From assembly GCA_019749855.1 (NCBI GenBank), contig JAIEPI010000115.1:1-44689 (forward strand): 44,689 nucleotides of DNA, read 5' to 3'. The notes beneath the pieces are model-generated. The model was given only the letters and a program-made list of their open reading frames with translations. It was not told where the DNA came from and made no database searches. This DNA comes from Rickettsiales bacterium. Lineage in GTDB: Bacteria > Pseudomonadota > Alphaproteobacteria > Rickettsiales > UBA998. Shown here one piece after another: positions 28,471 through 44,689 of this stretch (positions within the stretch are counted from its first letter, which is position 1; every line of letters begins with the position of its first letter). The position numbers and the translations under genes are program-made.

Positions 28471-28923
28471 ATGCGCACTACCACAACCAACCACATCCCT
28501 AAAAACGTCACCCGTCTTGAAAAAGAGGTTTATGCAAGCCTGAAACGGCGAGCACGCTTCGTTGGACTTACCATCGACGAACTATGCCGAAGAGCAAAAA
28601 TCGCCCCTTCGACATTTTCCCGCTGGGTAAACGGTCATCACAGCGGGCTAATTTTCACCATTGGTCAAATGGATGAAATCCTCACCAAGCTCGAAGCCGA
28701 GAAGTTTCATACGCTTGAAAAACGCATTCACGCCTGTGAACTGACAATCTCTGGCGCGTGCAGTGAGGTGGATATCCCCGTCCTCGACTATATCCGCTGG
28801 ATTCGCAAAGAGCTTTCCCCCGATTACGGAAAGCTGGCCGAGCTGGAGCGTTTCTTGTCAGAGCTTGAGGAAGCATCTGAGGCAGATCAACCTTCTGAAC
28901 CTGAAAAAATATGCGGGAGGTAG
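28471..28923 (+). CDS. hypothetical early protein (possible HTH, Cro/CII position)
   Basis: AAGGA RBS. LTIDELCRRAKIAPSTFSRWVNG is HTH-like. Codons 3-6 are encoded by the 12-mer box. Confidence 0.5.
   Translation: MRTTTTNHIPKNVTRLEKEVYASLKRRARFVGLTIDELCRRAKIAPSTFSRWVNGHHSGLIFTIGQMDEILTKLEAEKFHTLEKRIHACELTISGACSEVDIPVLDYIRWIRKELSPDYGKLAELERFLSELEEASEADQPSEPEKICGR
28477..28488 (+). promoter_or_regulatory. 12-mer box ACTACCACAACC (plus strand, codons 3-6 of the 28471 gene)
   Basis: Exact copy, and the only plus-strand one. It is in sense with its gene. Confidence 0.8.
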
Positions 28924-29277: not shown

Positions 29278-30417
29278 ATGCGAACCTACGGCAAGGTTAA
29301 AATAGCCTTTTGGGAAGACGAAAAAATCAGAGGATTGCAAGATGCGCCAAAACTACTGGCGCTATATTGCTTAACTGGTGAGCATAGCAATGCCATTGGC
29401 TGCTTCCGCTTGCCCATTGGCTACATTGAAACGGATCTGCGCTGGGACAAAGACAAAGCCCAATCAGCACTGACAGAGCTCATCGAAGCGGGATTCATTA
29501 TTTACGACGATGAAACCAACTATCTGCTCATGCCGCGCTACCTTGAGCATAACCCCATCGAAAATTCCCGCGTCGGCAAGATGTGCGTCCAGCTCATCAA
29601 TAATACCATGCGCTCACATAAAATATTCCCCGCGCTATGGCGAGCGCTTCAACATCAGAAAAATCGCTTTTCCATCAAAGATGATAACTTTTGGAATCCA
29701 GAATGGGACGTGCTCTATAAAAAACTATGCGTCGGCAATTATACCGTATCAGCAAAAGACAGCGGCAAGCAGCATACCCTATCGGATACCGTATCCGATA
29801 CAGTATCAGATACCCTATCGCATACCGTATCAGATACCGTATATTCAAAATCAGAGGTCACATCTAAAAATGGCGGAAATCCTCAACAATATACCGTATC
29901 CGATACCCTATCCGATACGGTAGGCGGCAGTGTGCAGGACTTTGCTCCCCCTGAACCTGAACCCCAACCAAAACCGAAACCAGAAAATAGAGATGATGAG
30001 GTCACGCGCCCGCGCACGACCCCTGTAGAAATCATCAGGGCTTTTGACGAAGCAATCGTTGAAGTGTTTGGCGAACAGCTTGCGCGACCTTGGCCGCATG
30101 GCGAAGACGCAATGATTGCCGCACAATTCATCGCGGCCGGAGCTGATCGTGAGCTGTGCCGGCAGGTTTTTCTCAAGCAGCTGCATTCCCATCACCGCAA
30201 AGGCAAGCACCCCATTGGCAGCTTGGCTTATTTCCGCACGGCCATTCCCGACGCGGTGAAAGACCGAACATTCTACCAACAAAACCCAATAACGGAGGTC
30301 AATCATGACGGAACCAAACCTGATGCAAGCCGACAATATGCGCCCCGCGCGCGCAGCGGTCATGACGCTTTCACTGAAGCCTTGGTTGAAGTCGTACACG
30401 AGCGCGAACGAGATTGA
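29278..30417 (+). CDS. replication-initiator-like protein with internal iterons
   Basis: GGAGGGGG RBS. The position after the immunity region, plus tandem 12-bp repeats inside the ORF followed by a Pro/Glu-rich linker, is analogous to lambda O. The function is inferred from organisation only. Confidence 0.45.
   Translation: MRTYGKVKIAFWEDEKIRGLQDAPKLLALYCLTGEHSNAIGCFRLPIGYIETDLRWDKDKAQSALTELIEAGFIIYDDETNYLLMPRYLEHNPIENSRVGKMCVQLINNTMRSHKIFPALWRALQHQKNRFSIKDDNFWNPEWDVLYKKLCVGNYTVSAKDSGKQHTLSDTVSDTVSDTLSHTVSDTVYSKSEVTSKNGGNPQQYTVSDTLSDTVGGSVQDFAPPEPEPQPKPKPENRDDEVTRPRTTPVEIIRAFDEAIVEVFGEQLARPWPHGEDAMIAAQFIAAGADRELCRQVFLKQLHSHHRKGKHPIGSLAYFRTAIPDAVKDRTFYQQNPITEVNHDGTKPDASRQYAPRARSGHDAFTEALVEVVHERERD
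29774..29920. repeat. 12-bp iterons ATACC(G/C)TATC(C/A)G, 6 tandem plus about 2.5 tandem copies
   Basis: Units start at 29774, 29786, 29798, 29810, 29822 and 29834, and again at 29891, 29903 and 29915. They are translated as (S/H)DT(V/L) repeats. Confidence 0.7.
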
Positions 30418-31799: not shown

Positions 31800-33731
31800 C
31801 TACGCAGCATCCTGCACGGCGGCAATATTTTCTGGTCGCGGCCATGCCTGCAACGCGAGACCGAACAAGTGTTTGCCGCGTTTCGTGATAGCATCTTCAT
31901 TCCAACCATCAACGTTCAAGAAATAACGGTTTAAGGCCAGTGCGGAATGTTTCAATAATTTCTCACGCTTATCGGTAAAACCTTCATTACCAAAGCTGGA
32001 ATTAAGCGACTGCATGATGAGCGTCAGGTTACCAAAGCTATGCAGCAACTGCTTGCGGTTATGGATTTTGCCGTAAATACCATCTTCTTCCTGTTCCTGA
32101 TACCATTGCGAATCAGCTTCTTCCCATTCTTGCTTGCTAATTGCACGACCATCTAGCGGCCAATTCTCAAACCAACTGAACGGCATAAAATGCTCAACGG
32201 ACAGCGCAGAATTAATCGTCACATCTTCGCTGAATTTGCTGCGGTCTTGATTTTCCAGCACTTGCAGAATTCCATTTACGGCGTAAGTGCCGAGTTCACT
32301 ATAAACGGCACGTTCAAGCCATGCTTTCTCAAATTCACCATCTGAAGGCCATGCGTTAATTTCAGAGGTGTATGATGTAAGCAGAGCTTGCAGGCTGGCG
32401 CGGTTCACGCCCATTTCCCGCAGCTTCCTCGTCATTGCAACAAAGGTCTTATTGTAGCTTTTCTGCGTTTTATTGCAGATAAGGCGGCGTATCAGGTAGG
32501 AATCCAAATCTTTATACACACCAGCACGTTCTTCCTCACCCAAATTGCCTTCCAGCTCGATGAGCATGATGAGCGGGTAAATCGCGGTAATATCCCAACG
32601 GCGCAAGCGCTTTGCGAATTCTGAAAGTACGGTATCCTCTTTGCCGTGAGTCAGGATTTCATAAACCTTGCTGGCGCGTTTAATATCTTCCAGCTCCTCA
32701 GTGACGGAAGCAAACGGCTCATCGTTGATAATCCAACCTTTGTAATCAGGAAAAATCTTATCAAAGCGTACTTCTGCACCGCTTTTGTAAAGGAGGTAGT
32801 TGTAGAAGAAGAACACCAGACGCTCTTCCGTCATACGGCCTTGCTTGACCTTGCTGCTCCAGAACGGTGTTTCCATTTCTTCCCAATGCGTATCGTACAG
32901 AGAATCCATGTCTAGCTCAGACTTATCAGCTCGCATAAAAATGTAATTGCGTATCAGATCTGCCGAGGTGAGTGGTGTGCCGCGTCCGTTCAACGTTTCA
33001 AAAATCATCTGCGGATCATCTTTGTCTAGCAGCTGAATCTCAACGATTTTTAGGTCATTCATTAACGCCTGATAGACATAATTCAGCACCTTGGCTGCAT
33101 CGAGTGGTTCATCATTCTCAGCCGTAACGCTTACGATTTCTTTCACGAACGCGCTGATCGTATCTTCAAAAAATAGGTATGCGCCTAAAACATTATTTTC
33201 GCGCATCTTGTTTTTGCGGTCACTTTTGTTGCCTTGGATATTCCATGCCTGATGCTTTTTAATGAATTCATCAAACGGCGTATTCAATGCTTCCTGGAAT
33301 GTTTCTTGGTCAAAGCGAGTCGGCCAGAGCTTGAATCGCTCCACTTCATTATTCACTGAACGGTACTGATTAAACAGGCAGCCCGTAATGTCCTCTGCCA
33401 GAGCTTCAACTTCATAGCGCCTGCATACTTCACGAAGAGCTGCGAGTACCAATTGCACCGTTGTCATGCGCTGTTGTCCGTCGATGACGGTAAAAGCCGG
33501 AATACTTTGCGTATTCGTTGGTAGGCGTTTATGCGCCAGCACAACAGAACCCATGAAGTGCGGATGCGCCTGCTGGCCGTTCATCCTGTCCACGGCTTTA
33601 TCGCGAATGTCATCCCATAGCGGCTGCCATTGATTCTTCTCATCCCAAACGTAATGACGCTGGAAGATAGGCACAATGTAGCGGATTTTCCGCTCAAACA
33701 ACTCGCTTATAGTTCTTGGGTCTGACTGCAT
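31800..33731 (-). CDS. GmrSD-type DUF262/DUF1524 protein (type IV restriction-like)
   Basis: N-terminal IPIFQRHYVW and DGQQR (VIDGQQRMTT) are DUF262/ParB-like NTPase motifs. The C-terminal SVEHFMP region is of the DUF1524 His-Me finger type. Confidence 0.8.
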   Translation of the reverse strand: MQSDPRTISELFERKIRYIVPIFQRHYVWDEKNQWQPLWDDIRDKAVDRMNGQQAHPHFMGSVVLAHKRLPTNTQSIPAFTVIDGQQRMTTVQLVLAALREVCRRYEVEALAEDITGCLFNQYRSVNNEVERFKLWPTRFDQETFQEALNTPFDEFIKKHQAWNIQGNKSDRKNKMRENNVLGAYLFFEDTISAFVKEIVSVTAENDEPLDAAKVLNYVYQALMNDLKIVEIQLLDKDDPQMIFETLNGRGTPLTSADLIRNYIFMRADKSELDMDSLYDTHWEEMETPFWSSKVKQGRMTEERLVFFFYNYLLYKSGAEVRFDKIFPDYKGWIINDEPFASVTEELEDIKRASKVYEILTHGKEDTVLSEFAKRLRRWDITAIYPLIMLIELEGNLGEEERAGVYKDLDSYLIRRLICNKTQKSYNKTFVAMTRKLREMGVNRASLQALLTSYTSEINAWPSDGEFEKAWLERAVYSELGTYAVNGILQVLENQDRSKFSEDVTINSALSVEHFMPFSWFENWPLDGRAISKQEWEEADSQWYQEQEEDGIYGKIHNRKQLLHSFGNLTLIMQSLNSSFGNEGFTDKREKLLKHSALALNRYFLNVDGWNEDAITKRGKHLFGLALQAWPRPENIAAVQDAA

Positions 33732-33779
33732 ATTTTTCCTCTCCTTGTTTTTATTATTCGATTATTTGCATAGTTGCCA

Positions 33780-34904
33780 CTAATCACTTTCCAGTTCATC
33801 CAGATATTTTTTGAATTTGAAGCTCTGGTTGCGCTGCTTCCCATCTTCGGGCTGCAAAATTCCTATTTCCACGAATTTATCCACGAGCTTCTTTGCCGGC
33901 GGGTAAGTGGTTTCAATTGCTTCTGCCACGTCATTGATGGTCATTACTGGATTATGGCAGAGGCTATCGAGCAGCTTTAAGCCTTTCACGCGGTTGCGGC
34001 CAAGCGCAGCCTCGATGCGTTCCGAGCTTTCACGAATGAGTGTATCCACCCGCCACGCGCGGGTAACCACATCATCAGCAGATTCCTTCACGCCACGGAG
34101 AAAATACTTAATCCAGCCCTCATAGTCAGCCTTCACGCGCACGGCATCGAGCCTGCTGTAATACTCGCTGCGGAATTTCTTGAAGTAAAAGGACGGATAC
34201 AAAATCGGCTCTTTCAACAGTCCGTATTCCAACATCATCAGCACAATCAGCAAACGACCAATACGGCCATTGCCATCTAAAAATGGGTGGATGGTTTCAA
34301 ACTGGACGTGCGCAAGCCCAACGCGGATAAGCGGCTCACAGGTGCTATCTTCGTTAATGAATTTCTCAAGGTCACGAATCAGATCAGGCACATAATTCGC
34401 AGGAGGCGGTACGAGCTTGCCGACGAACACAGGAACTTTGCGGAACTCGCCTGGGGCTTTAGTCTGTCCCCGCGCGCCAGCCAGCAAAACTTGGTGACTC
34501 TCCCTGATGACACGATTCGTTAGTGGCAACCCCTGTTCACGAACCATATTCAGGGCATGATTAACCGCATCGAGGTAATTCAACACATCCTCAACATTTC
34601 GGTTTTCACGCATTTTCTTGCGAGCATTAAACTCAAGCACTTCGGTCAGCGTGGTGTAGATGCCTTCAATTTCACTGGAAAGCACGGCTTCCTTCGCAAC
34701 ATACACGTCAATGAATTGTCGTTTGCTGGGGATGCGGGTTCCCACCTCGTCGAGCCGCCCCAAGCTCTGCATAGCTTCGCCATAGAGCGAGATCATCTCT
34801 GCATCCATCTGGAAGGCTGGCTCCGGTGGCAGAGGTTTCGGCACGAAATGCTCGTGTTCTCCAAATTTCTCGTAATGCCCGCTGCGGCTTGCTTGTGTCG
34901 TCAT
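33780..34904 (-). CDS. Fic-family protein (class II, N-terminal inhibitory helix)
   Basis: Canonical HPFLDGNGRIGR Fic motif, SSEIEG matching the (S/T)xxxE(G/N) inhibitory motif upstream, and a C-terminal wHTH-like region. Confidence 0.9.
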   Translation of the reverse strand: MTTQASRSGHYEKFGEHEHFVPKPLPPEPAFQMDAEMISLYGEAMQSLGRLDEVGTRIPSKRQFIDVYVAKEAVLSSEIEGIYTTLTEVLEFNARKKMRENRNVEDVLNYLDAVNHALNMVREQGLPLTNRVIRESHQVLLAGARGQTKAPGEFRKVPVFVGKLVPPPANYVPDLIRDLEKFINEDSTCEPLIRVGLAHVQFETIHPFLDGNGRIGRLLIVLMMLEYGLLKEPILYPSFYFKKFRSEYYSRLDAVRVKADYEGWIKYFLRGVKESADDVVTRAWRVDTLIRESSERIEAALGRNRVKGLKLLDSLCHNPVMTINDVAEAIETTYPPAKKLVDKFVEIGILQPEDGKQRNQSFKFKKYLDELESD

Positions 34905-35313: not shown

Positions 35314-35439
35314 TCGCACCTAATGATTGAAAGCCTTGATAATCCTAGCTTTGGAAGAAAATTTGCCCGCGCTTTCATCATAAATGAATCTCTAAAAAAA
35401 AGAGGTCAGATAGCATTTACACCATCTGACCTCCCAAAT

Positions 35440-36465
35440 TTACGCTGCTTCAAGCACTTCTTCGGTAGCAACGGCTTCTTCGGTCGCATCATCAGCCACG
35501 CTCAACTCATCAAAGACTTTCTTCTGCGCTACAGGCTCAAGCAATTTCTTTTGCGCCATTGCCAAAACCTTGCCCATTGCACCCAGCTTATCGGCAATCG
35601 TGCTTGCACGGATACGGTCGATCTTCTTCACAATGTCCATTTCCCCATCCTTATTGAAAAAGCGGTTTAGGGTGAGCGCCATCGTGTCGATATGCTGCTC
35701 AAGACTTTTAAGAGCCCGCACTTCTTCTTCGGACAGCTTCACATCAGGAAACAATTCAGGCTGGTTGCCTGCATCGGCAAAAGTTTGAGCAACGGCTGCC
35801 AATTCGCTGCTGTCAACTTTACCGCTGCGGATCATGCGCCAGAATGGGTCTTGATATTCAGGAGCAACCTTTGAAAGGTAAAATGCCTGGGTGGGTGTCA
35901 ATATCCCTTGCTCCAAACAGATTTGATATTCAGGTTTCAAGTTCAACAGCGTCAGGCGGTCATGCACACGGAACGGCTGCAAGATGCCAACTGTTTCTGC
36001 TAACTGCTCTGGCGTTAAGTCAAAATCATCCATCGCCTTACGATATGCCCGCGCTTCTTCCAGAGGCGAAATATCAACACGCTGCAAATTCTCGATAATC
36101 ATCTGCGCGGTCAACGAGGCATCGGATAGTTGCTTGATGATGACTTGGACATTTTCCAGCTCAAGCAGTTTGCAAGCACGATAACGGCGTTCACCAGCAA
36201 CAATCATGTATTTGCCAGTGCCATCAGGTCTTACGACAATCGGGCTAATCAGACCTTGCACCTTAATCGACGCAGCAAGTTGGCGCAGTTCGGTTTCATC
36301 GAAATGCTTACGGGCTTGCTCATCGTTGGCATAAATCTGATTGAGAGGAAGCTGCTGCATCACATCGTTCGGCACGGCTTGGTGCAGACGAGTGACTTTC
36401 GCAGGCTTGGTTTTCTTAGCTTGTTTTGGTGACGTAGCTTTTTTCTTGGCGGTTGCTTTAGGCAT
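35440..36465 (-). CDS. ParB/Spo0J-family protein with canonical GERRxRA motif
   Basis: The ATG at 36465 follows AAGGAGAA. Lys-rich N-terminus, then LISPIVVRPDGTGKYMIVAGERRYRACKLL. The longer ORF-track start would translate the leader box. Confidence 0.8.
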   Translation of the reverse strand: MPKATAKKKATSPKQAKKTKPAKVTRLHQAVPNDVMQQLPLNQIYANDEQARKHFDETELRQLAASIKVQGLISPIVVRPDGTGKYMIVAGERRYRACKLLELENVQVIIKQLSDASLTAQMIIENLQRVDISPLEEARAYRKAMDDFDLTPEQLAETVGILQPFRVHDRLTLLNLKPEYQICLEQGILTPTQAFYLSKVAPEYQDPFWRMIRSGKVDSSELAAVAQTFADAGNQPELFPDVKLSEEEVRALKSLEQHIDTMALTLNRFFNKDGEMDIVKKIDRIRASTIADKLGAMGKVLAMAQKKLLEPVAQKKVFDELSVADDATEEAVATEEVLEAA

Positions 36466-36486
36466 AGGATTCTCCTTGGTTTTGGT

Positions 36487-36498
36487 GGTTGTGGTAGT
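36487..36498 (-). promoter_or_regulatory. 12-mer box ACTACCACAACC
   Basis: Exact copy, 21 nt upstream of the ATG at 36465. Confidence 0.8.
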
Positions 36499-36518
36499 GG
36501 GCTTTAGTGCCAATCCAA

Positions 36519-36551
36519 ATCCTATCCAAATGACCTTTACCGTCCACAAAA
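36519..36551 (-). promoter_or_regulatory. promoter TGGACG-16-TAGGAT with conserved upstream box TTTTGTGGACGGT
   Basis: The same architecture and spacing recur at 42572-42604 and 39642-39674. Confidence 0.5.
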
Positions 36552-36591
36552 TTCGACCTGCGAAACTAAAATAATTCGCATTAAATCAACA

Positions 36592-36633
36592 GCTTAAATA
36601 GAAAATGCGCTTTCCAGAAACCAGAAAGCGCAT
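36592..36633 (-). terminator. rho-independent terminator downstream of the DUF488 gene
   Basis: 10-bp stem atgcgctttc/gaaagcgcat. On the minus strand it is followed by TTTCTATTT. Confidence 0.55.
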
Positions 36634-36641
36634 TATACTAT

Positions 36642-36710
36642 GCGGCGACCTATAGAGGATGACACAGGTGCCCCCTTGTCAGCTGGGTGCAAGTCCCGGT
36701 AGCCGCTCCA
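36642..36710 (+). other. tRNA-like acceptor/T-arm minihelix ending in CCA (not a canonical tRNA)
   Basis: GCGGCGA pairs with TAGCCGC (6 of 7). T arm CTGGG-TGCAAGT-CCCGG, then T-CCA. Only 34 nt lie between the acceptor 5' strand and the T arm, forming one bulged hairpin. Confidence 0.3.
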
Positions 36711-37124
36711 TTATTCTTCAAACAAAGATGCTTGTTTTGATTTTGCCTTCGGCTTTTTAGCCACAACATACTCTGGCACTTTCACGCCGAGATGTTCTTC
36801 AAACCATTCGGCCACCATGCGGCGGTGACACCATTCGTCTGGTTGGATTGGGTCTTTCTCCCAACATAACAGCACAGGCTCATGACCTTTTGCCAGTTCG
36901 TGCAGGTGGTCATAAACTTTTTGCGGATTGAGCGGTTTAAGAATTTCGCGAAAATAGCGCTCACGAAATTTGGCTTCACAGCATTTATATTCTTCGCTGT
37001 TGAACCATGTGCCTGGGTTTAATGCTCGGTAAAGTCTGTAGCCTTCGCCAAGGTTGCGGGGGAATCCGCGAGAGATGATTATCCGACCGGAACCAGTATA
37101 GTTCCAGAAATTGCTGGTTTGCAT
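36711..37124 (-). CDS. DUF488-family protein
   Basis: ...HEPVLLCWEKDPIQPDEWCHRRMVAEWF matches the LLC.E.....CHR hallmark of DUF488 as I recall it. Confidence 0.6.
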   Translation of the reverse strand: MQTSNFWNYTGSGRIIISRGFPRNLGEGYRLYRALNPGTWFNSEEYKCCEAKFRERYFREILKPLNPQKVYDHLHELAKGHEPVLLCWEKDPIQPDEWCHRRMVAEWFEEHLGVKVPEYVVAKKPKAKSKQASLFEE

Positions 37125-37142
37125 ATTCGTCCTTTTTTTGGT

Positions 37143-37154
37143 GGTTGTGGTAGT
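37143..37154 (-). promoter_or_regulatory. 12-mer box ACTACCACAACC
   Basis: Exact copy, 18 nt upstream of the ATG at 37124. An extended -10 TGCTATAAT lies 6 nt upstream of the box. Confidence 0.8.
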
Positions 37155-37209
37155 GGCAAAATTATAGCAGGAACAAATTACAAATCCAGCAATTTCAGCA
37201 CCTTAACAA

Positions 37210-37632
37210 TCATTCACCACGGACTCTTTTCAGCAAAACATCGTTGTCATCTTGACTGCTGCGATACTCATAAAGTGGTTGGTCTGGATGCTCTTGTGCG
37301 ATGATGAGCTGGTCATAAGACACATACCTCAGCTTCTCATTTCCGCCAGAAGTCACCGAGAAAACTTCACCCGCTTCCAAGTGTTCGCACAGCTCTTTTG
37401 CAAACACATTCAGATCGGCATCAACCAGTTCATCTTCTTCCTCATCATGGATGCGAGGGTGAGCAAAAGGGTACATCTCATAACTGCCAAAGCCGACACT
37501 GCGCTCTGTTTCGTTTTCTACCCATACCTCAACATCATCACCGAAGTGGTATTTCGCAAACCATTCTTTGAATTTCTCAACGTCTTTAACCTTGAAAAAG
37601 TTTGAGCGAAGCGCTCCATACATATCTGCCAT
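37210..37632 (-). CDS. hypothetical acidic protein
   Basis: 140-aa ORF with an acidic run (HDEEEDELVDADL). No motif recognised. Confidence 0.5.
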   Translation of the reverse strand: MADMYGALRSNFFKVKDVEKFKEWFAKYHFGDDVEVWVENETERSVGFGSYEMYPFAHPRIHDEEEDELVDADLNVFAKELCEHLEAGEVFSVTSGGNEKLRYVSYDQLIIAQEHPDQPLYEYRSSQDDNDVLLKRVRGE

Positions 37633-37640
37633 AACTCCTC

Positions 37641-38057
37641 CTATGCCGCTTCGTGGTTAGCAAGGGTATGACCTTGAGCTTTCAAATTCCGCAGCCATTG
37701 GCTGAGAAACGCACTTTGCCTGTCTAGCTCTTTGGTACGGACGCGGTCATTCTCATCAATGCACTCGCGATAACCAAGGAAATCTTGCATCGCCATTGGC
37801 AAAGCCATCTTCTTTTCGAGGTCAAGCCAGATACGCATATCTGGGTCTGGCACTGAATCGCCGTTCTGCTTGTAGTAATGCGCCAGCGCAATATCCAAAC
37901 GGTTCGGGCGACGGTCGAGCGCGTCATAGTGTAAATCCATGAAGCCGCCTGCGGTGAGTTTGCCTGCATCGCCGGGTTTCATGTTCTCAATGTTTGGTAT
38001 GAGCGCAACGATGCGTTCATAGTTGGCTTTGAATTGTCTAATAGTCGTCATGTTCAT
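37641..38057 (-). CDS. hypothetical protein, DUF1249/YqiB-like pattern (tentative)
   Basis: N-terminal F.ANYERIVALIP and C-terminal FLSQWLRNL resemble the YqiB-type layout. It is a paralog of the next gene. Confidence 0.4.
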   Translation of the reverse strand: MNMTTIRQFKANYERIVALIPNIENMKPGDAGKLTAGGFMDLHYDALDRRPNRLDIALAHYYKQNGDSVPDPDMRIWLDLEKKMALPMAMQDFLGYRECIDENDRVRTKELDRQSAFLSQWLRNLKAQGHTLANHEAA

Positions 38058-38075
38058 GGGTAGCTCCTGTTTTGA

Positions 38076-38465
38076 TTAGTGGATTGTTGCGTTGTCATTG
38101 CCGGCAAGGATGCCAAGCCAATTCGTAAGTCGATTATTCATCACGTTCAGAATCTGCTCATTCACGCCCTTCTTTGGCTCGCGTGTGTGCGTCGTGCCTC
38201 GGCATTTGAACCAGATAGATTCTGGAATTGCTTTGCGCTCATGCAGATCGAGCTTCACGGTCATTTTGTGGTCGGGCAGCAATTCTTCGCCGTGCCGATA
38301 ATGAAAGCCGATTTCCAGACGCATCACGGATTGCCCGCGCTGCTTTACTTTGATGATGCCAGTCATCGGGCTGGTTGGAATCGTGACACAATCCTGCGCC
38401 GCACTTTCTGCAACCGCGGGGAATACACTTAGTATTCGTTCGTAATGTTCTTTGTAAATGCACAT
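38076..38465 (-). CDS. hypothetical protein, paralog of 37641-38057 (tentative DUF1249-like)
   Basis: N-terminal YKEHYERILSVFP and C-terminal RLTNWLGIL. It is preceded by the box leader and a TTTACA-16-TAGAAT promoter. Confidence 0.4.
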   Translation of the reverse strand: MCIYKEHYERILSVFPAVAESAAQDCVTIPTSPMTGIIKVKQRGQSVMRLEIGFHYRHGEELLPDHKMTVKLDLHERKAIPESIWFKCRGTTHTREPKKGVNEQILNVMNNRLTNWLGILAGNDNATIH

Positions 38466-38487
38466 AGTTTTTGCCTCTTGGTTTGGT

Positions 38488-38499
38488 GGTTGTGGTAGT
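38488..38499 (-). promoter_or_regulatory. 12-mer box ACTACCACAACC
   Basis: Exact copy, 22 nt upstream of the ATG at 38465. Confidence 0.8.
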
Positions 38500-38506
38500 G
38501 AAAATT

Positions 38507-38534
38507 ATTCTAGCTTTTTTACCTTTTATGTAAA
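38507..38534 (-). promoter_or_regulatory. sigma70-type promoter TTTACA-16-TAGAAT
   Basis: The -10 lies 7 nt upstream of the first A of the 12-mer box. Confidence 0.55.
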
Positions 38535-38580
38535 GGAAAATCGGAATAAATAACTATAAATATCAATAGCTTATACACCA

Positions 38581-39168
38581 TTAATCCGCCTTTCTCTTGG
38601 CGTTTTTTAACCGCTCTAAAACTGCTTCGTAATTGCGGAGGTGGGCAAAGCTCATCCAGTTGTTGCTTCCGCCTGTGTAATCGCGGCGGTGCTTGCATGA
38701 GCGGTAGAGAATTTGAAGGTCACTACCGCAACTTCCTTGCGCTAACTGCACATACAAATCATCGGTATGCAGAGTGACTTCACCGCTGACCGCGATGCCT
38801 GCCTTGTTGTTTCGCAGATCGAAACTGCCCTTGGCATAACCCAAATCGCAGGCAATTTGTTTTAGCAGTGCTTTGCCGCGTCTGTGGAATTGCTCCTTTG
38901 CTTCTGCATCGTATGCGACTGGGCGAGAGGCAACTTCAAGGAAGCTGCGCGCTAGTTTGTTTGCGCTTAGGCGGTCAACCTGACTATCAATCCATTTTTT
39001 GCAATCTGCCTCTGTATGCGCTTCCCACACACGCTGGCGGATATTGCTCATGTGATAGACGCTGAAATTCTGCGCCTCAAATTGCACGATGCGGTAGCCG
39101 CGATATTCCTCCTGAGGGAATTCAAGCACCGTCATATCTTGGTAGTGAGTTATCTGTCCTGGTTTCAT
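38581..39168 (-). CDS. hypothetical protein
   Basis: I prefer the ATG at 39168 (MKPGQITHY), preceded by AGGAGAA. No motif recognised. Confidence 0.5.
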   Translation of the reverse strand: MKPGQITHYQDMTVLEFPQEEYRGYRIVQFEAQNFSVYHMSNIRQRVWEAHTEADCKKWIDSQVDRLSANKLARSFLEVASRPVAYDAEAKEQFHRRGKALLKQIACDLGYAKGSFDLRNNKAGIAVSGEVTLHTDDLYVQLAQGSCGSDLQILYRSCKHRRDYTGGSNNWMSFAHLRNYEAVLERLKNAKRKAD

Positions 39169-39264
39169 AATCTGTTCTCCTGTTAATGTTTCAAATTCAG
39201 GCCGCAGTTTTCCACCCGCTGCTTTGGCGGCGGTCACAACGACTTATTGGTTGGGTGGGTTAGG

Positions 39265-39597
39265 CTATTTCCAGTCTGGCAAAGACACTTCTATGGTCTT
39301 GCCTTCTGGCACTGGCACTTTGCTAATCAGGTAGCCGAGGCGATTTACCCATCGGCATCCACTGGCTAGAAATGGCGGCTCGCCATCGTTATTATCCATC
39401 AGCGTCCAAATGCAGCGTGGGTCTTGCCTGACCACAAACTCATATTCTGCCCCGTAAGTTTCAAACAGGCAGCCGCGCTGATCGGCATCGTTTTCTGAAA
39501 TATAAACCCAGCCTGCACTGGGATTGAGATGATTATGCACGAGCGGAAACTGCTCGTTAAATTCATCCTCATTTAGCTGTATTAATTCCTCTGTCAT
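39265..39597 (-). CDS. hypothetical small acidic protein
   Basis: The ATG at 39597 follows AAAGGAGAG. The ORF-track extension would read through the leader. Confidence 0.5.
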   Translation of the reverse strand: MTEELIQLNEDEFNEQFPLVHNHLNPSAGWVYISENDADQRGCLFETYGAEYEFVVRQDPRCIWTLMDNNDGEPPFLASGCRWVNRLGYLISKVPVPEGKTIEVSLPDWK

Positions 39598-39623
39598 CGT
39601 TGCTCTCCTTTGGTTTGGTTGGT

Positions 39624-39635
39624 GGTTGTGGTAGT
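39624..39635 (-). promoter_or_regulatory. 12-mer box ACTACCACAACC
   Basis: Exact copy, 26 nt upstream of the ATG at 39597. Confidence 0.8.
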
Positions 39636-39641
39636 AAAAAC

Positions 39642-39674
39642 ATTCTAACTTTATGATAGTGACCGTCCACAAAA
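39642..39674 (-). promoter_or_regulatory. promoter TGGACG-16-TAGAAT with TTTTGTGGACGGT box
   Basis: The -10 lies 6 nt upstream of the 12-mer box. Confidence 0.55.
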
Positions 39675-39713
39675 ATCGGCAGAAAATCACTATAATTCAG
39701 CATATTATTTCCC

Positions 39714-40505
39714 TTAAAATTCAAACATAAACTGGGCGGTTTGCTGGGGTGGCGGCATAACAATTTGCGGTTCTGGCTCTGGTCGTGGCGGCAGTTCAAA
39801 AGCAGGCAACAGATTACCTGATACACCATGTCGCTGCATGAGCTTCCATTGCGGTGTTGAGCGTTTATCCCAATGCTCCATGCGCAACGTGTCACCATGA
39901 ATAACCACGCCTGGAAGTTCCAGCGCAGCCAACTGAAAATACGCCATGTTGAAACAGGTGCGGTTTATATCTATGGCTTGAAACAGCATCGTGCAGCGCG
40001 GATCATGCCCTTCATCGCGCAGGGCGTTTGCCGCCTCAATAACCATCACACCAGCACCGCAAGCGGGCTCTTGGAGGGTCACATAGCCTTTTGCCTTAAT
40101 AAGCTCTCCTAAGCCGCTCATTTGCATTTTTGCCATCATGCGGCTGATATTGCTGGGCGAGAAAAACTCACCATTGTGTTTATTGCTTATTTCCAGCTGC
40201 ATATACTGCTCGCCAAGGAAATCTTCCTGCGTACTGCGCAGCGCAATCACCGAGATGCCGTAAAGGGCAACAATCTGGTCAATTTCCTCTCGGTTATATT
40301 TCTTAATGGTCGAAAGATAGAGCTCTTCGATACGCTCATAATCTTCGTCTTTCTCCAGCAAGCCCAAATGATAGGGTTGCTGGTGGATTGTGCAGGCAGC
40401 AATTTCGATAAAATCACGAAATGCGTCATGCCAATTACGGCGATAACACAATTTATCAAAGGACGTGCGAAAGGCTTTGCCGCTGTCGGCAATGGATTTA
40501 TTCAT
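39714..40505 (-). CDS. N6-DNA-methylase-like SAM-binding protein lacking a visible catalytic (D/N)PP(F/Y/W) motif
   Basis: GEFFSPSNISRMMAKM (motif X-like), EPACGAGVMVIEA (motif I) and ...IHGDTL are present. The ORF then ends in a Pro-rich tail without NPPF/Y. Confidence 0.55.
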   Translation of the reverse strand: MNKSIADSGKAFRTSFDKLCYRRNWHDAFRDFIEIAACTIHQQPYHLGLLEKDEDYERIEELYLSTIKKYNREEIDQIVALYGISVIALRSTQEDFLGEQYMQLEISNKHNGEFFSPSNISRMMAKMQMSGLGELIKAKGYVTLQEPACGAGVMVIEAANALRDEGHDPRCTMLFQAIDINRTCFNMAYFQLAALELPGVVIHGDTLRMEHWDKRSTPQWKLMQRHGVSGNLLPAFELPPRPEPEPQIVMPPPQQTAQFMFEF

Positions 40506-40573
40506 AAAAACTCCGGTGGTTATTGCGCTTCTAAAAAATCAAGTCATAATGCGCCCACGGCCTCCTTATGGGA

Positions 40574-40585
40574 GGTTGTGGTAGT
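40574..40585 (-). promoter_or_regulatory. 12-mer box ACTACCACAACC
   Basis: Exact copy, 68 nt upstream of the ATG at 40505. It is followed by the small hairpin CCTCC-CATAA-GGAGG. Confidence 0.8.
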
Positions 40586-40614
40586 GCGCTTTGGGGTGGT
40601 ACTCTGGCGCCGGT

Positions 40615-40640
40615 GACGGAGGGTGTTAAAACCCTCCGTC
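40615..40640. terminator. 10-bp hairpin just after the large parB-like gene
   Basis: gacggagggt-gttaaa-accctccgtc. There is no T-run on the minus strand, so it may be a terminator, attenuator or processing site. Confidence 0.35.
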
Positions 40641-40649
40641 ATTTAATGA

Positions 40650-42521
40650 TTACGCCATGCCTTTCGGCAGCCACGTTTTCAGCTTGGCTTGTTGCTCCGG
40701 CGTAAACTGCGGCTGGTCAGGACTGGCAAATGCCCCATGCAGCACGGCAACCACATCACCTTTCGGCTTCTTGCCTTGTTCCTTTGCCCATGCTTCACCA
40801 AAGATATGCTCGCCAATTTCCAGCACATCCTTTTTGGTCACACGGTCAAAGAAGTTAGTCTGGCTCGGCCGCCAATGCTTCGCAACATCAACACCAAGAC
40901 GCTTAAACACCGCTTCGGCAACTGGTGAAGGCTTATCCTCGATTGACAACTGCGGCATGAGCGAGCGGGAAACACAGGCTGCAAATAATCGCTGCTTCAC
41001 CTCTAAGGACAACTCGCAGAAGGCTTTGAATTTCTCGCCTTCGTCCTTGATGTTCATCCATGCAAGCGGCAAGCTGGCAAAGAGTTTTTCTTCTTCACTG
41101 TGCAATGCCGTGCCTGTTTCATCCTCAGACACCATGAGATGCGGGAAGTGATAGTTTTCTGGCTTCACCCGCAGCCAGTCCTTGCCGTAGTAGTAGCTAT
41201 GAGCGGAATTGAGGCTGCGCAGGCACATCATGTAAACCGTTGCATCAAACGCCACTTCAAAGTTCTGCGCCATATACGGACGCTCGACTTGCAGGCGGTA
41301 GTTTTTCAGGCGGTCAACAAGTGCCTGGCTATAAGGCATCGTATGCTTGGCAGCATTGCTGATATTTGCCCCTTCGGTTTTTTCAGCAGACTTAGCGGCA
41401 GCTTTTTTATCATCGGGATGAATCATTCCCTCCAAGATTTCTGCCGTACCATTATGCTGAATGGTGATGACACAGCCCGACGAAGCACGCTCTTCTTCGG
41501 TAAAGCCTGAATATTCTGCCAATTTCGCTTCAAGCTCTTCCTGCTCCTTACGGAGTGCGTCAGCTGCATCGTCGTCATAATCCTCAGCAGCATCCATTTC
41601 TTCCATTTTGCTTTCCAGCACTTCTTGCTGTTTCAGCAATTTCTTTGGAATCTCGCCAATCTGATGCGGATAGAAGCGGCCATACTGCTGTTTATCTTCC
41701 CAGCCAAAATCAAGACGGACTTCAACCCATTTCCACTTTTCTTTCAGCGGCTCGGCTATCTTATTGAGCTTTTCCTCTGCTAATTCATGGAGCAGCTCCA
41801 GATCTTCGAGATAGAAAGAATCACGTTCACCGAATAAATCGGTGCGGAATGCGCCACCCGCTAATTTATAGGTATCGAGTCCGACAAATTTTGCCAGCTT
41901 GTCATCACCGCGCACCATCGTTTCTGTGAGTGCGCCGCGTATGGTGTTAGGCTGTCTGATTTGCCAGCTGTCTTTGAATTGCTTGAACACATCTTCTTGC
42001 TTGGCGTGGTCATCTGTAATGGTAAACGCCATCAGGCTTTCCAGCGACAACTCCTCATTGCGGTATGCCTTCATTAGTTTGGGCGACACACGACCAAGTT
42101 TTAAGCGCTGCTCTACGGTGATTTCTGCGACACCGAACCGAGCGGCAATATCGGCAATGGACATTTCATTCGACAGCTTTGCCCATGCTTCAAACTGATC
42201 GGCTGGGTGCATCTGTGAGCGCACAACGTTTTCGGCAAGGCTGATTTCCTCAGCCTTATCTTCTTCGACAATTTGGCAGTTCACTGCATGGGTTTTCGGC
42301 AGCTTTCCTTGCTTCTGCAATAAGTGCAGCGCAGTCAAGCGGCGACCACCAGCAACGACTTCAAATTTATTTTTCTCTTTCGTTTTGATGACGATGAGAT
42401 TTTCCAGCAAGCCGTGCGCGGCAATGCTGGAAGTGAGTTCATCCAAACCCTTCTTTGTGTCAGTTTTCCTGACGTTGAAGTGCTTGGAAACACTAAGGTT
42501 ACTTAACTGAATTGTTTGCAT
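40650..42521 (-). CDS. large ParB-N-domain protein (623 aa) of plasmid/ICE type
   Basis: The ATG at 42521 follows AAGGAGAA. LSVSKHFNVRK...LTSSIAAHGLLENLIVIK...FEVVAGGRRLTALHLL, followed by a long C-terminal extension with an acidic coiled region. Confidence 0.75.
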   Translation of the reverse strand: MQTIQLSNLSVSKHFNVRKTDTKKGLDELTSSIAAHGLLENLIVIKTKEKNKFEVVAGGRRLTALHLLQKQGKLPKTHAVNCQIVEEDKAEEISLAENVVRSQMHPADQFEAWAKLSNEMSIADIAARFGVAEITVEQRLKLGRVSPKLMKAYRNEELSLESLMAFTITDDHAKQEDVFKQFKDSWQIRQPNTIRGALTETMVRGDDKLAKFVGLDTYKLAGGAFRTDLFGERDSFYLEDLELLHELAEEKLNKIAEPLKEKWKWVEVRLDFGWEDKQQYGRFYPHQIGEIPKKLLKQQEVLESKMEEMDAAEDYDDDAADALRKEQEELEAKLAEYSGFTEEERASSGCVITIQHNGTAEILEGMIHPDDKKAAAKSAEKTEGANISNAAKHTMPYSQALVDRLKNYRLQVERPYMAQNFEVAFDATVYMMCLRSLNSAHSYYYGKDWLRVKPENYHFPHLMVSEDETGTALHSEEEKLFASLPLAWMNIKDEGEKFKAFCELSLEVKQRLFAACVSRSLMPQLSIEDKPSPVAEAVFKRLGVDVAKHWRPSQTNFFDRVTKKDVLEIGEHIFGEAWAKEQGKKPKGDVVAVLHGAFASPDQPQFTPEQQAKLKTWLPKGMA

Positions 42522-42539
42522 TTTGTTCTCCTTGGTTTT

Positions 42540-42551
42540 GGTTGTGGTAGT
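42540..42551 (-). promoter_or_regulatory. 12-mer box ACTACCACAACC
   Basis: Exact copy, 18 nt upstream of the ATG at 42521. Confidence 0.8.
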
Positions 42552-42571
42552 TGGCAATAGTGCCAATAAAA

Positions 42572-42604
42572 ATCCTATCCTAGTAACCTTGACCGTCCAC
42601 AAAA
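42572..42604 (-). promoter_or_regulatory. promoter TGGACG-16-TAGGAT with TTTTGTGGACGGT box; palindrome TTGGCA-N4-TGCCAA at 42551-42566
   Basis: By manual alignment, about 68 of 78 positions are identical with the region upstream of 35440-36465. Confidence 0.5.
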
Positions 42605-42659
42605 TTCGACCTGCAAACAAAAATAATTTTCAACGATAACAAAAGGTTGTAAGGTTGCC

Positions 42660-44012
42660 ATGTTCTACGGAGCCGTCCCTACAGAGTGCATCGAGCAGGT
42701 GTTCCGCATCATTGATTTCAGCGCATGGCAAAAAGCCTATGTGTGCTGCTCTGGCAGTTTCCGCATTGAGCGTGCGCTGAAAGCAAAATTTCCGCATCTG
42801 CAAGTCATCAGCAATGATGTGAGTTTGTATTCCTCTGCGGTCGGCTATCTCGCTTGCAACAAAGAATTCAACATCATGTTTGAAGGCGACCTGTCATTTA
42901 TTCAGGAGCGGCCAGACGTAAACAGCTTCTTTGAAAAAACAGCGGCATTGCTGGTTGCCTGCGATATGGCACGGTACGGCGGGCGCAAAAATGAATATGC
43001 CCGCAAGCATTTCAATTACTACGTTGAAAACTTTGAGCATTTCTTCAACAAGGCAAAAGACCGCCTTGACCGCATCATCCCTGAAATGCCACTGCAAGGC
43101 TATTTCGCTGGCGATTGGCGCACCCATGTCAAACACGCCATCGAGGAAGGCGCTGGCATCCTAGCGTTCCCGCCTTTCTTCAAAGGCGATTATGAAAGCC
43201 AGTTCAAATTTATCGACAACAACATCCACTGGCCTGCACCAGACTACGACATCTACGAGCCGAAAATGCTCGGCAAAATTATTGATGAAGTTGACGCATC
43301 AGGCGTGGACTATTGCATCCTATCTGATCAGCTCTTTGAACATCGCAAGCCCGTGCTGGAATATGTGACTGGGCGCAAAGTGCCGCATTACTGCTACGCT
43401 CGCACCGATAAATCCAGCGTGCGCCATATCTACAAAGCACCAGAGCCATTTGCCTATGACCCCATAACCCCAGCCAAGCTGACTGCCAAAAGTGAGGTTC
43501 AGGTTGTTCTTGCTGAAAGCCGCCACATGGATTTCATCAAAGACATCTACCTGCAAAAAACCATCATCCACACAAGCGGCGTGGCTAACTTTCTAATCTT
43601 CATCGATAAAATGTTGGTCGGCGGCATCATTTATTCCCTGCCGAAATTTCCAACTTTCGGACACAACACGATTTACCTGCTGTCGGATGTGACAATCAGC
43701 CGCGATGCAAAACTTTCCAAACTCATTGCCAAGCTCGCCACGTCCAAAACTCTGCTTTCGCTAGTCAGCAAAAAGCTCATCAGCCGAGTTGATTATGTGG
43801 TGACCACCGCACGGACGCATAACCCCGTTTCTATGAAATATCGGGGCATTTACGAAATGCTGAACCGACGTGAAGCTGACGACCCTGCGGAAGGGAACAT
43901 CATTAACTACGGCTCTGCCATGCGCGACGAAACTCCGCAAGAAATGTACTCCGCGTGGTACTGGCCTAACTATGGGAAAAAATATGTCGAGCAAAAACAA
44001 AAAAGCAAGTGA
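42660..44012 (+). CDS. methyltransferase-like protein (Dam/D12-like layout, degenerate FPPF motif) with unknown C-terminal domain
   Basis: VCCSGSF near residue 30 and AFPPFF near residue 172 mimic the motif I / motif IV spacing of alpha-class N6-adenine MTases. The residue before PP is Phe, not D/N/S. Confidence 0.4.
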   Translation: MFYGAVPTECIEQVFRIIDFSAWQKAYVCCSGSFRIERALKAKFPHLQVISNDVSLYSSAVGYLACNKEFNIMFEGDLSFIQERPDVNSFFEKTAALLVACDMARYGGRKNEYARKHFNYYVENFEHFFNKAKDRLDRIIPEMPLQGYFAGDWRTHVKHAIEEGAGILAFPPFFKGDYESQFKFIDNNIHWPAPDYDIYEPKMLGKIIDEVDASGVDYCILSDQLFEHRKPVLEYVTGRKVPHYCYARTDKSSVRHIYKAPEPFAYDPITPAKLTAKSEVQVVLAESRHMDFIKDIYLQKTIIHTSGVANFLIFIDKMLVGGIIYSLPKFPTFGHNTIYLLSDVTISRDAKLSKLIAKLATSKTLLSLVSKKLISRVDYVVTTARTHNPVSMKYRGIYEMLNRREADDPAEGNIINYGSAMRDETPQEMYSAWYWPNYGKKYVEQKQKSK

Positions 44013-44689
44013 GCAGCCTGAGGTTACTGAGGTTGCGGTTATCTCTATTCCAACGGAAATCCGCAAATACCGCTTCATCGAGCCTGAGCAAATTGCTTTC
44101 CCTGTGCCAGAAGCGGATGCAAGCCCAGACGATAGTGCTGTGCAGATCACCATCTGCTTTTCGGAAGTGCCGATATCGCTGCTTTCTACCTTGAGCGCCG
44201 AAGACAATGCGCGGTTTATGACCGCAGACCAGATGCGCAGGCTTTCTGGCAACATCAAGAAAGATGGCGGCGCAACAAGTGCCGTGCTTGTCTATCCTGA
44301 CCATGAAACCAAAAAGCTCGTCGTGCTTTCTGGCAATCACCGCGTCGAAGCCGCAGTGCTGGCGGGCGAAGTCACCATGCCTGTCATGGTCGTGCAGTGC
44401 TACCTGACACCAGAGCGCAGACTTGCATTGCAGCTTTCGCATAATGCCATCACGGGGCAAGATGACCCAAACATCCTCGGCAAGCTCTACGAAACGCTGA
44501 CGATGGAATACAAAGCCTATTCTGGTTTAACGGATGATTCATTCAATCTGCTGGAAAAGCTGAATATCGACAGCCTTGCGATCGGCACACCGCAATATGA
44601 AGAAATCGTGCTGCAATTTCTGCCGCAGGAAAAAGAAGCGTTCATGGCGTATCTGGAACGCTTGGGCAAACCCAACGAAAAGAAAACCT
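43984..44689 (+). CDS. ParB-like N-terminal domain protein, 3'-partial (runs off the window; not in the ORF track)
   Basis: Hand-translated open frame from the ATG at 43984 with no stop to 44689. It reads ...NARFMTADQMRRLSGNIKKDGGATSAVLVYPDHETKKLVVLSGNHRVEAAVLAG..., a ParB/sulfiredoxin-type motif. Confidence 0.6.
   Translation, partial: MSSKNKKASEQPEVTEVAVISIPTEIRKYRFIEPEQIAFPVPEADASPDDSAVQITICFSEVPISLLSTLSAEDNARFMTADQMRRLSGNIKKDGGATSAVLVYPDHETKKLVVLSGNHRVEAAVLAGEVTMPVMVVQCYLTPERRLALQLSHNAITGQDDPNILGKLYETLTMEYKAYSGLTDDSFNLLEKLNIDSLAIGTPQYEEIVLQFLPQEKEAFMAYLERLGKPNEKKT

Follow-up and report, generated by a model that had tools for sequence, protein, structure and literature searches.

We analysed a stretch of 44,689 nt from a Rickettsiales bacterium (contig JAIEPI010000115.1, assembly GCA_019749855.1; "the window" below means this whole stretch), whose right-hand 9 kb encodes three ParB-domain proteins, two methyltransferase-like proteins and a series of small proteins. 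The initial annotation of this DNA had treated these genes as one establishment-type module of the kind found in conjugative plasmids. The region is instead a composite that straddles the early/late boundary of an integrated temperate tailed phage, and it comprises two layers rather than one unit: a conserved phage gene set (layer A) and a lineage-specific insert (layer B), which lies between the DUF488 gene and the Dam-like gene and splits that set. What appears to be new, judging from homology, is a plasmid-type establishment ParB with its companions, inserted into a conserved, uncharacterised phage neighbourhood of Dam-like/GNAT, ParB and DUF488 genes; its closest known relative is HerB/YfjB. 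The genes, with profile or BLASTP matches in brackets, are as follows (aa, amino acids; pI, isoelectric point).

35440..36465, minus strand: ParB-341, an orphan canonical ParB of 341 aa (ParB_N 1e-28, HTH_ParB 1.6e-14); layer A
36711..37124, minus strand: DUF488 protein of 137 aa, DUF488-N3a subclade (Pfam DUF488, phrog_2450); layer A
37210..37632, minus strand: acidic 140-aa protein, pI 4.55, with 63 metagenomic relatives, none of them named; layer B
37641..38057, minus strand: DUF6908 protein of 138 aa (Pfam 4.4e-21), with only 4 plasmid records; layer B
38076..38465, minus strand: 129-aa weak paralogue of the DUF6908 protein (BLASTP 6e-8), first gene of a three-gene unit; layer B
38581..39168, minus strand: 195-aa protein with no Pfam match; layer B
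39265..39597, minus strand: acidic 110-aa protein, pI 4.36; layer B
39714..40505, minus strand: truncated HsdM-like protein of 263 aa (N6_Mtase-like; phrog_5696 over its full length); layer B
40650..42521, minus strand: 623-aa member of the HerB/YfjB family of ParB-CTPases (ParB_N 4.5e-8; phrog_7783 over its full length, 6e-75); layer B
42660..44012, plus strand: fusion of Dam-like and GNAT-like domains, 450 aa (PF22555 and PF22559; DAM-like-phage1 7e-52; phrog_7858), first gene of the packaging operon; layer A
43984..44689, plus strand: ParB-305, a degenerate ParB-like protein whose first 235 codons are in the window and which continues to 305 aa in identical contigs; layer A

Six metagenomic contigs, of 77 kb or less, code for an identical 450-aa protein and were used to follow the sequence beyond position 44689. 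In these contigs the gene order downstream is ParB-305, a 130-aa gene with a weak match to the small terminase subunit (TerS), a Terminase_6N large terminase subunit (TerL), a DUF4055 portal protein, a Phage_Mu_F head protein and capsid-region genes. Upstream, within the window, are genes for a tyrosine integrase, an SMC-like ATPase, RecT, a PD-(D/E)XK nuclease, a 305-aa repressor-type protein, a DnaD-like replication protein, GmrSD and Fic, in agreement with the earlier description of a region attached to integration, recombination, repressor and replication genes. Ordinary chromosomal genes, for example for a TonB receptor, YfiR and a pilin, lie to the left of the prophage. Late genes downstream, integrase, recombination and replication genes upstream and the chromosomal left flank together identify the element as an integrated temperate tailed phage, not a plasmid or an integrative and conjugative element (ICE). 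No nearby oriT, relaxase or type IV secretion system (T4SS) gene, and no ssb, psiB or ardA-type gene, was found in the window or in the 10 kb downstream; the initial annotation had suggested looking past position 44689 for ssb, psiB, relaxase, T4SS or virion genes, and virion genes are what is encoded there. It had also named, as the outcome that would speak against it, an ordinary late region combined with routine phage functions for the genes in question. The late region is present, whereas routine functions were not what the searches returned. No near-identical DNA turned up when phages, plasmids and E. coli were searched.

The HerB-like protein and its companions

Over nearly its whole length the 623-aa protein is homologous to the F-plasmid protein HerB (YfjB); BLASTP matches its residues 3-598 to HerB residues 37-620 at 26% identity (E 3e-38). 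It contains all four domains of that family, each covered to at least 80%: a ParB N-terminal domain (GGRRLTA at residue 58, ENVVR at residue 97), a helix-turn-helix (HTH), D3 and D4. An alignment of eight sequences, among them plasmid proteins from roseobacters, Martelella and Ralstonia, shows invariant residues in all four domains, as far as the C-terminal W..P motif. The residues of the cytidine triphosphate (CTP) pocket that HerB needs to bind and hydrolyse CTP, R94 of box II and E130 of box III, are present in the sequence, with GGRRLTA and ENVVR aligning to GGRRLAA and TENGHR. HerB itself was described in July 2026 (bioRxiv) as a zygotically induced protein of the F plasmid leading region that binds CTP through boxes II and III, dimerises via the novel D4 domain, forms nucleoid foci, reprograms host transcription and makes the acquisition of a plasmid less costly (PMC13370423). 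The gene in the window is not in a leading region and lacks a single-strand promoter of the HerB kind; it lies between replication and packaging genes and has a GTGGAC-17-TAGGAT promoter.

HerB homologues are overwhelmingly plasmid-borne. The published survey counted 426 on plasmids and only 3 in phages, all of them cyanophages and of "functional significance unclear" (PMC13370423), and tblastn with the 623-aa protein found at least 5000 plasmid records, 272 of which cover at least 80% of it, and only 15 weak phage records. A profile-guided scan of IMG/VR gave 45 loci with HerB-like genes, 8 of them from the window's lineage, and 137 open reading frames (ORFs) neighbouring 15 of the other loci were scanned against Pfam. 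Their products include some typical of prophages (four Peptidase_S24 repressors, three DUF5131 proteins, D12 methylases, DnaB, DUF3799) and others typical of conjugative elements (MobA, TrwC, a T4SS coupling protein, PsiA, SSB, ArdC-N, RepA_C). Because they carry genes for a relaxase, a T4SS coupling protein, PsiA, SSB and ArdC-N, some of the IMG/VR "viral" contigs with HerB (within loci L033-L068) are in fact conjugative elements; other loci resemble genuine early regions of prophages. Carriage of HerB by phages is rare, but it is not unique to the window's lineage.

Next to the HerB-like gene is the gene for the HsdM-like protein. This protein has the N-terminal helical region and motifs X and I (motif I reading EPACGAG), can be aligned with HsdM as far as GDTLR and stops short of motif IV; no [NDS]PP[YFW] occurs anywhere in it. 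Of the two motifs that mark HsdM-type N6-adenine methyltransferases, I and IV, it has motif I only. Members of phrog_5696 and the plasmid homologues share the short length (~250-270 aa), and the truncation is an inherited trait of the family. Relatives occur in 2139 plasmid records, 1480 of them conjugative; examples are a Yersinia plasmid, on which a 273-aa gene is close to DUF1281 and ArdA, and a Ralstonia plasmid, on which ~0.8 kb separates the gene from one of the HerB family. Searches of NCBIfam gave generic ParB and HsdM matches only. Two relationships of the 263-aa protein were considered and rejected. It does not form a split methylase with the 110-aa protein, in which only 35 residues follow an EPPF at residue 73 and which has a separate promoter, and on comparison it is unrelated to the 227-aa methylase of the F plasmid.

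The remaining five layer B proteins are small. The DUF488 protein, the two acidic proteins and the paralogous pair (138-aa DUF6908 protein and its weak 129-aa paralogue) noted at first inspection are all present. The structural model of the 140-aa protein is confident (predicted local distance difference test, pLDDT, 91.6), and its best match in the PDB has an E value of 0.38 and a template modelling (TM) score below 0.3; in the viral structure library BFVD it matches two uncharacterised phage proteins only, and it has no plasmid match. For the 195-aa protein (pLDDT 83) the best PDB match, at E 0.064, is not significant, and its C-terminal domain of ~120 aa is widespread as a stand-alone protein. 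As modelled, neither protein seems to adopt a known fold among the PDB matches. The 110-, 129- and 138-aa proteins have no sequence relatives in the PDB. Apart from DUF6908, the small ORFs had no match in Pfam, in PHROG families with a function, in NCBIfam or in PADLOC, and across the region PADLOC returned generic ParB-domain or methylase-domain matches only, with no defence-system assignment. We treat an anti-defence role of the small proteins as a hypothesis.

The Dam-like/GNAT, ParB and DUF488 neighbourhood

On the plus strand, the 450-aa protein carries CSGSF, D53, FPPF at residue 170 and SMKYRG, so that FPPF stands where Dam (D12-class) adenine methyltransferases have the catalytic D-P-P-Y. 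We aligned 35 members of its family, down to 23% identity. The D/N position of the motif is occupied by F in 28 of the 35, by S in 3, Y in 2, A in 1 and I in 1, and in none by D or N. Also kept across the family are a motif I-like CSGxF, the invariant D53, FPP[FT][YFW] and, in the GNAT-like half, the invariant SMKYRG. FPPF is thus a conserved family trait and not a sign of decay. Both methyltransferase-like proteins had been called crippled; this description suits the 263-aa protein, which is without motif IV, but is misleading for the 450-aa protein because F-P-P is kept family-wide. The family comprises 794 representative clusters at 50% identity and looks like a stable, divergent enzyme or binding module.

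ParB-305, encoded next, has GNHRVEA at residue 117 and no box III. Its assignment as a ParB comes from phrog_7405 (2e-53), phrog_620 (1e-9) and several PHROG ParB profiles (1e-9 to 1e-5), while Pfam ParB_N gives only E 0.14; in an alignment with Caulobacter ParB, GNHRVEA falls on GERRWRA. The three distinct arginine patches first reported for the region, GERRYRA, GGRRLTA and GNHRVEA, were all recovered in the proteins to which they had been ascribed, ParB-305 being the weakest ParB assignment of the three, and the 3'-partial frame at 43984 is real, as its extension to 305 aa shows. The 450-aa gene and ParB-305 overlap by 29 nt, and the whole series of 450-aa gene, ParB-305, 130-aa gene and TerL overlaps by 29-34 nt, the signature of one translationally coupled operon.

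The pairing is general. IMG/VR was scanned with a 12-sequence subset of the Dam-like/GNAT family, the 35-sequence alignment being too diverse for this, and at least 563 stretches with relatives were found; the 80 best loci were retrieved for comparison. In every one of the loci with at least 3 kb of downstream sequence (72/72), the enzyme gene is immediately followed, on its own strand, by a ParB-305 homologue. A DUF488 gene is divergent from, and within 1 kb of, the Dam-like/GNAT gene in 29 of 54 loci outside the window's lineage; among the 32 unrelated loci with enough sequence, DUF488 is upstream on the opposite strand at any distance in 23, and a ParB-341-like gene is upstream on the opposite strand in 14. 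The enzyme-ParB pair, with overlapping frames, is also present in cultured actinophages, as gp29/gp30 of Gordonia phage Clawz, where one product is annotated "ParB-like nuclease domain protein", and as gp68/gp69 of Mycobacterium phage Jeon. Plasmid records carrying the enzyme number only 10 among 72,556 and are mostly non-mobilizable. Based on these frequencies, ParB-341 and DUF488 diverging from Dam-like/GNAT and ParB-305 (followed by TerS and TerL) make up an old, phage-typical neighbourhood.

ParB-341, at the left end of this set, has GERRYRA at residue 91 and ENLQR, matches Spo0J (1.8e-32) and TIGR00180 (130 bits), and is monocistronic with its own promoter and terminator. A deviant Walker A motif of the ParA type (KGGxGK[ST]) was absent from all six reading frames, a ParA-binding motif ([LFI]G[KR]G[LFI]) from all three ParBs, and a search with canonical parS found no site within 3 mismatches. 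We found no literature on DUF6908 or DUF488-N3.

Layer B is separable from this core. Its genes (623-, 263-, 110-, 195-, 129-, 138- and 140-aa) are confined to the window's lineage (L072-L078), and none of the 32 unrelated loci that keep the Dam-like/GNAT, ParB-305 and DUF488 core has the HerB-like gene (0/32), the HsdM-like gene or any of the small ORFs. More distant phage relatives have at the same place DUF4942, DUF7007, DUF1281_C and DUF6927, which are typical of plasmids and ICEs, and the gene content of the insert varies between relatives. The resemblance to plasmid leading regions that had been proposed for the entire module therefore survives in part: it reflects true homology for two genes, the full-length HerB homologue and the plasmid-common HsdM-like gene, inside a variable accessory slot, but it does not extend to the 450-aa protein and ParB-305, which are phage-typical (10 plasmid records versus at least 563 viral stretches).

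Promoters and the leader box

A 14-mer box, CTACCACAACCACC, occurs in the window in 9 copies with at most 2 mismatches, against 0.2 expected by chance, all in the sense orientation of the downstream gene. Six precede the minus-strand units that begin with ParB-623 (the HerB-like gene), the 263-aa gene, the 110-aa gene, the 129-aa gene, DUF488 and ParB-341. One of the others precedes the leftward recombination operon, one is at the start of the rightward replication operon and one is in the first codons of the integrase. The Dam-like gene is not preceded by a copy and 11 kb of late region contain none, so the claim that all operons of the region carry the box holds for the six minus-strand units and fails for the plus-strand operon. 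The promoter and terminator features of the minus-strand units are listed here.

35400..35435, minus strand: terminator-like hairpin ending the ParB-341 unit, with a 16-bp stem, 6 G-C pairs and a T-run
36484..36595, minus strand: promoter/leader cassette of ParB-341, with GTGGAC-17-TAGGAT, a degenerate palindrome and the box CTACCACAACCACC at 36484-36497
36604..36634, minus strand: terminator-like hairpin after DUF488
37140-37153, minus strand: box of DUF488, with a TATAAT -10 element
38507-38534, minus strand: promoter of the 129-aa unit, TTTACA-16-TAGAAT, with its box at 38485-38498
39642-39669, minus strand: promoter of the 110-aa unit, TGGACG-16-TAGAAT, with its box at 39621-39634
40571-40584, minus strand: box of the 263-aa gene, after a hairpin and with no visible promoter
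40614-40641, minus strand: that hairpin, upstream of the 263-aa gene, resembling a terminator of the HerB-like gene
42537..42648, minus strand: promoter/leader cassette of the HerB-like gene, with GTGGAC-17-TAGGAT and the box at 42537-42550
42551-42566, minus strand: perfect palindrome TTGGCA-N4-TGCCAA between the -10 element and the box of the HerB-like gene

Four of the six boxed units have a recognisable sigma-70-type promoter, DUF488 has a -10 element only and the HsdM-like gene has neither. The 129-aa, 110-aa and DUF488 units share one geometry: a -10 element (TAGAAT/TATAAT), 7-8 nt, the box, 15-23 nt including the Shine-Dalgarno sequence, and ATG, with a recognisable -35 element in the first two. 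At the two ParB genes, ~21 nt with the palindrome separate the -10 element from the box, and their cassettes are 77% identical over 110 nt. The fixed spacing between -10 element and box places the box at the start of the transcript, and transcripts of the boxed minus-strand units are predicted to begin at or just before CTACCACAACC. In our reading, box and promoter are a duplicated strong promoter with an unstructured CA-rich leader, which would mark genes read by the host RNA polymerase. Sharing of the box with the PL- and PR-type early promoters fits expression that is early or carried out by that polymerase.

The CA-rich leader is a trait of the lineage, its sequence drifting while its position is kept. 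One relative (L016) retains the box despite diverged flanks. Another, L030, with 55% identity in HerB, has TTGACGG-17-TAGGAT/TAGAAT followed by AACCACAAAACCAA in the same position; variant cassettes of this kind (TTGACGGTAAGGT ... TAGGAT/TAGAAT ... AACCACAAAACCAA) lie before several of its units, at 6079-6130, 7924-7976, 10582-10633 and 11717-11768. The palindrome TTGGCA-N4-TGCCAA has one perfect copy in the window, with a degenerate copy upstream of ParB-341 at 36498-36513, and in L016 its arms are kept and its spacer is changed. It may be a site of ParB autoregulation. We do not claim it as an operator: copies with at most 2 mismatches are only about twice as frequent as chance predicts (9 versus 4.1), and 3 of 100 shuffles reach 9.

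Several further observations concern these elements and the rest of the prophage. Downstream of the box at the 263-aa gene, within 40530-40584, are AGGAGG and a two-codon mini-ORF (ATG ACT TGA). The box variant CTACCACAACCAAC, at 22436-22449 and 28478-28491, forms the first codons of the integrase and of a 150-aa HTH gene and reads in frame as Thr-Thr-Thr-Thr-Asn in both. Exact copies of AGCTAACAAA[G/C]CTAC at 27262-27276 (minus strand) and 28445-28459 (plus strand) flank the 305-aa gene (27387-28304) between divergent promoters and are probably repressor operators. The DnaD-like replication gene (29278-30417) contains eight iteron-like repeats (ATACCNTATCNG) with 12-nt spacing at 29774-29935, which are probably the phage replication origin, as in lambda O. 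GmrSD is a Type IV restriction enzyme whose N-terminal domain has the ParB/Srx fold; together with Fic it forms variable cargo at 31800-34904, and it is absent from several relatives that are otherwise near-identical (L001, L003, L004, L016 and L017). About 3 kb to the left of the prophage integrase, a second tyrosine integrase gene (356 aa) and an overlapping 235-aa gene at 16245-18019 may be the remnant of another element at the same locus.

Proposed functions, alternatives and known systems

As the best explanation of these data we favour the two-layer reading, including the functions proposed for each layer, and regard it as reasonably probable. It is built on gene content, homologies, synteny statistics and the geometry of promoters and leaders, from which we infer the timing of expression and all biochemical activities. 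In layer B, host RNA polymerase would read the boxed units as soon as the DNA becomes accessible, on entry or on induction. The HerB-like dimer would bind CTP, load on DNA and spread or bridge, as HerB of F does, and the altered transactions of host or phage DNA would favour establishment. The HsdM-like and small proteins would be accessories of establishment or counter-defence, a plausible role of the former being S-adenosylmethionine binding or interference with Type I complexes. Layer B would then be the phage counterpart of a plasmid leading region. In layer A, the Dam-like/GNAT protein may act on phage DNA, in modification or protection, with ParB-305 as its loader or activator, both made along with the packaging proteins; DUF488 and the orphan canonical ParB would be frequent further partners. 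Precedents for an enzyme with a ParB loader, on which this proposal draws, are ParB-dependent T-dioxygenases (PMC13229309) and ParB-methylase and ParB-DUF488 fusions (PMC12704722).

Several results weigh against this account. The Dam-like/GNAT family has no sequence match in the PDB, even by profile, which makes its chemistry a guess, and hhalign of its profile with Mom of phage Mu gave a probability of 0.4%, that is, no similarity. In the actinophages the pair is not beside the terminase, and in Jeon it is far from the structural genes; its link to packaging may therefore be positional only. Of the HTH residues with which HerB makes contact, K175 is conserved in the 623-aa protein but R168 and R172 are not. 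The operator-like AGCTAACAAASCTAC is found in exact form only at the PL/PR-type region and is absent from the promoters of the ParB module, so that the minus-strand promoters might be constitutive in the lysogen rather than early. At the HsdM-like gene the box comes after a hairpin and no promoter can be recognised, and the box may for this reason act at the RNA level. Lastly, the small ORFs had been put forward as candidates for anti-restriction families or folds, and no match to ArdA, ArdB/KlcA, ArdC or Ocr-type proteins was obtained, by sequence for all five and by fold for the 140- and 195-aa proteins.

A more specific proposal for layer A is that Dam-like/GNAT, ParB and DUF488 form a widespread phage system that modifies DNA after replication in a new way, for instance by attaching an acyl or aminoacyl group to adenine. 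The Dam-like domain, retooled with F-P-P, would flip and hold the base, the GNAT-like domain would carry out the transfer and ParB would serve as the DNA-loading activator. We consider this specific chemistry possible, with the chances clearly on the other side.

Among alternative explanations, delivery in the virion is unlikely but retains some appeal. The Dam-like/GNAT protein and ParB-305 would be late proteins, packed in the capsid and injected like Dar/Ddr of P1, and would protect the incoming DNA in cis instead of modifying it ahead of packaging. They are the first products of the packaging operon, from overlapping frames, a MuF-family head protein is encoded just downstream, and delivery in virions has been predicted for ParB-like domains encoded next to late genes (PMC5512222). 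However, neither protein is fused to MuF or to another capsid-targeting domain, and in Jeon the pair is distant from the structural genes.

We think it quite unlikely that the whole stretch is one DNA-modification or anti-restriction pathway, with the ParBs as loaders, the HsdM-like, DUF488 and Dam-like/GNAT proteins making a single hypermodified base and the small proteins as subunits. ParB, methylase-like and DUF488 genes do co-occur, ParB-methyltransferase and ParB-DUF488 fusions exist (PMC12704722) and a ParB-dependent DNA dioxygenase is known (PMC13229309). Yet the layer B genes are missing from every one of the 32 unrelated loci with the core, the two parts are on opposite strands and differ in regulation (box versus no box), and the HsdM-like protein is without its catalytic motif.

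That the minus-strand genes are cargo for lysogenic conversion or for defence against superinfection by other phages and plasmids is improbable. Promoters that look constitutive and have no PL/PR operator motif would suit such a role, as would the adjoining true defence cargo, GmrSD and Fic, and inhibition of incoming elements is known for Osa-like ParB proteins (cited in PMC13370423 and PMC5512222). Against this, PADLOC gave domain-level matches only, HerB homologues act for and not against the incoming element (PMC13370423), and the box is common to the recombination and replication operons, which are not functions expressed in a lysogen. Partition or maintenance of a phage-plasmid by the ParB genes is highly improbable: ParB-341 is canonical and matches TIGR00180, and a few Dam-like/GNAT relatives are on non-mobilizable plasmids, but ParA, ParA-binding motifs and parS-like sites are lacking, and the tyrosine integrase and flanking chromosomal genes speak for integration.

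On the two-layer reading, a full-length member of the HerB family is encoded in a proteobacterial prophage lineage, under its own strong promoter and with a box shared with the early operons. A prophage HerB would offer a tractable system in which to ask whether phages use the same host-takeover clamp. The triad of Dam-like/GNAT, ParB and DUF488 is very common in viral contigs and has had no function assigned so far; it fits a pattern now emerging, in which proteins with the ParB fold act as partners to enzymes that modify DNA.

Compared with known systems, the HerB-like gene is closest to HerB, with which its product has in common the four-domain architecture, the end-to-end alignment, the pocket residues and the lack of a ParA partner; both are encoded by mobile elements beside orphan methylase-like and small genes. 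Unlike herB, it is in an integrated phage and not by oriT, ssb or psiB, it has a double-stranded sigma-70-type promoter with a leader box in place of the single-strand Frpo promoter, and its product differs in the HTH contact residues. ParB-341 shares the standard ParB_N and HTH core, GERRYRA and ENxxR with canonical ParABS and KorB-type ParB regulators, and differs from them in having no ParA, ParA-binding motif or recognisable parS and in being monocistronic.

ParB-methyltransferase fusions and the orphan methylases of leading regions and prophages (PMC12704722; PMC11541004) likewise associate the ParB fold with the methylase fold on mobile elements and have been proposed to act in anti-restriction, and ParB-DUF488-HTH fusions bind CTP (PMC12704722). 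In the window these are separate genes, the HsdM-like protein is without motif IV and the Dam-like domain has F-P-P in place of D-P-P-Y. A parallel to layer A is offered by the ParB-dependent phage T-dioxygenases, DNA-modifying enzymes that need a phage ParB as activator, and need it specifically when the DNA is double-stranded (PMC13229309). There, too, the gene of a DNA-acting enzyme (5mYOX176) is invariably paired with a dedicated, divergent phage ParB-like gene, and in ParB176, likewise, the nucleotide pocket is degenerate and canonical features for binding DNA are not obvious (PMC13229309). The putative enzyme of layer A differs in being a Dam-like/GNAT fusion rather than a 2-oxoglutarate dioxygenase, and DUF488 is an additional, frequent neighbour.

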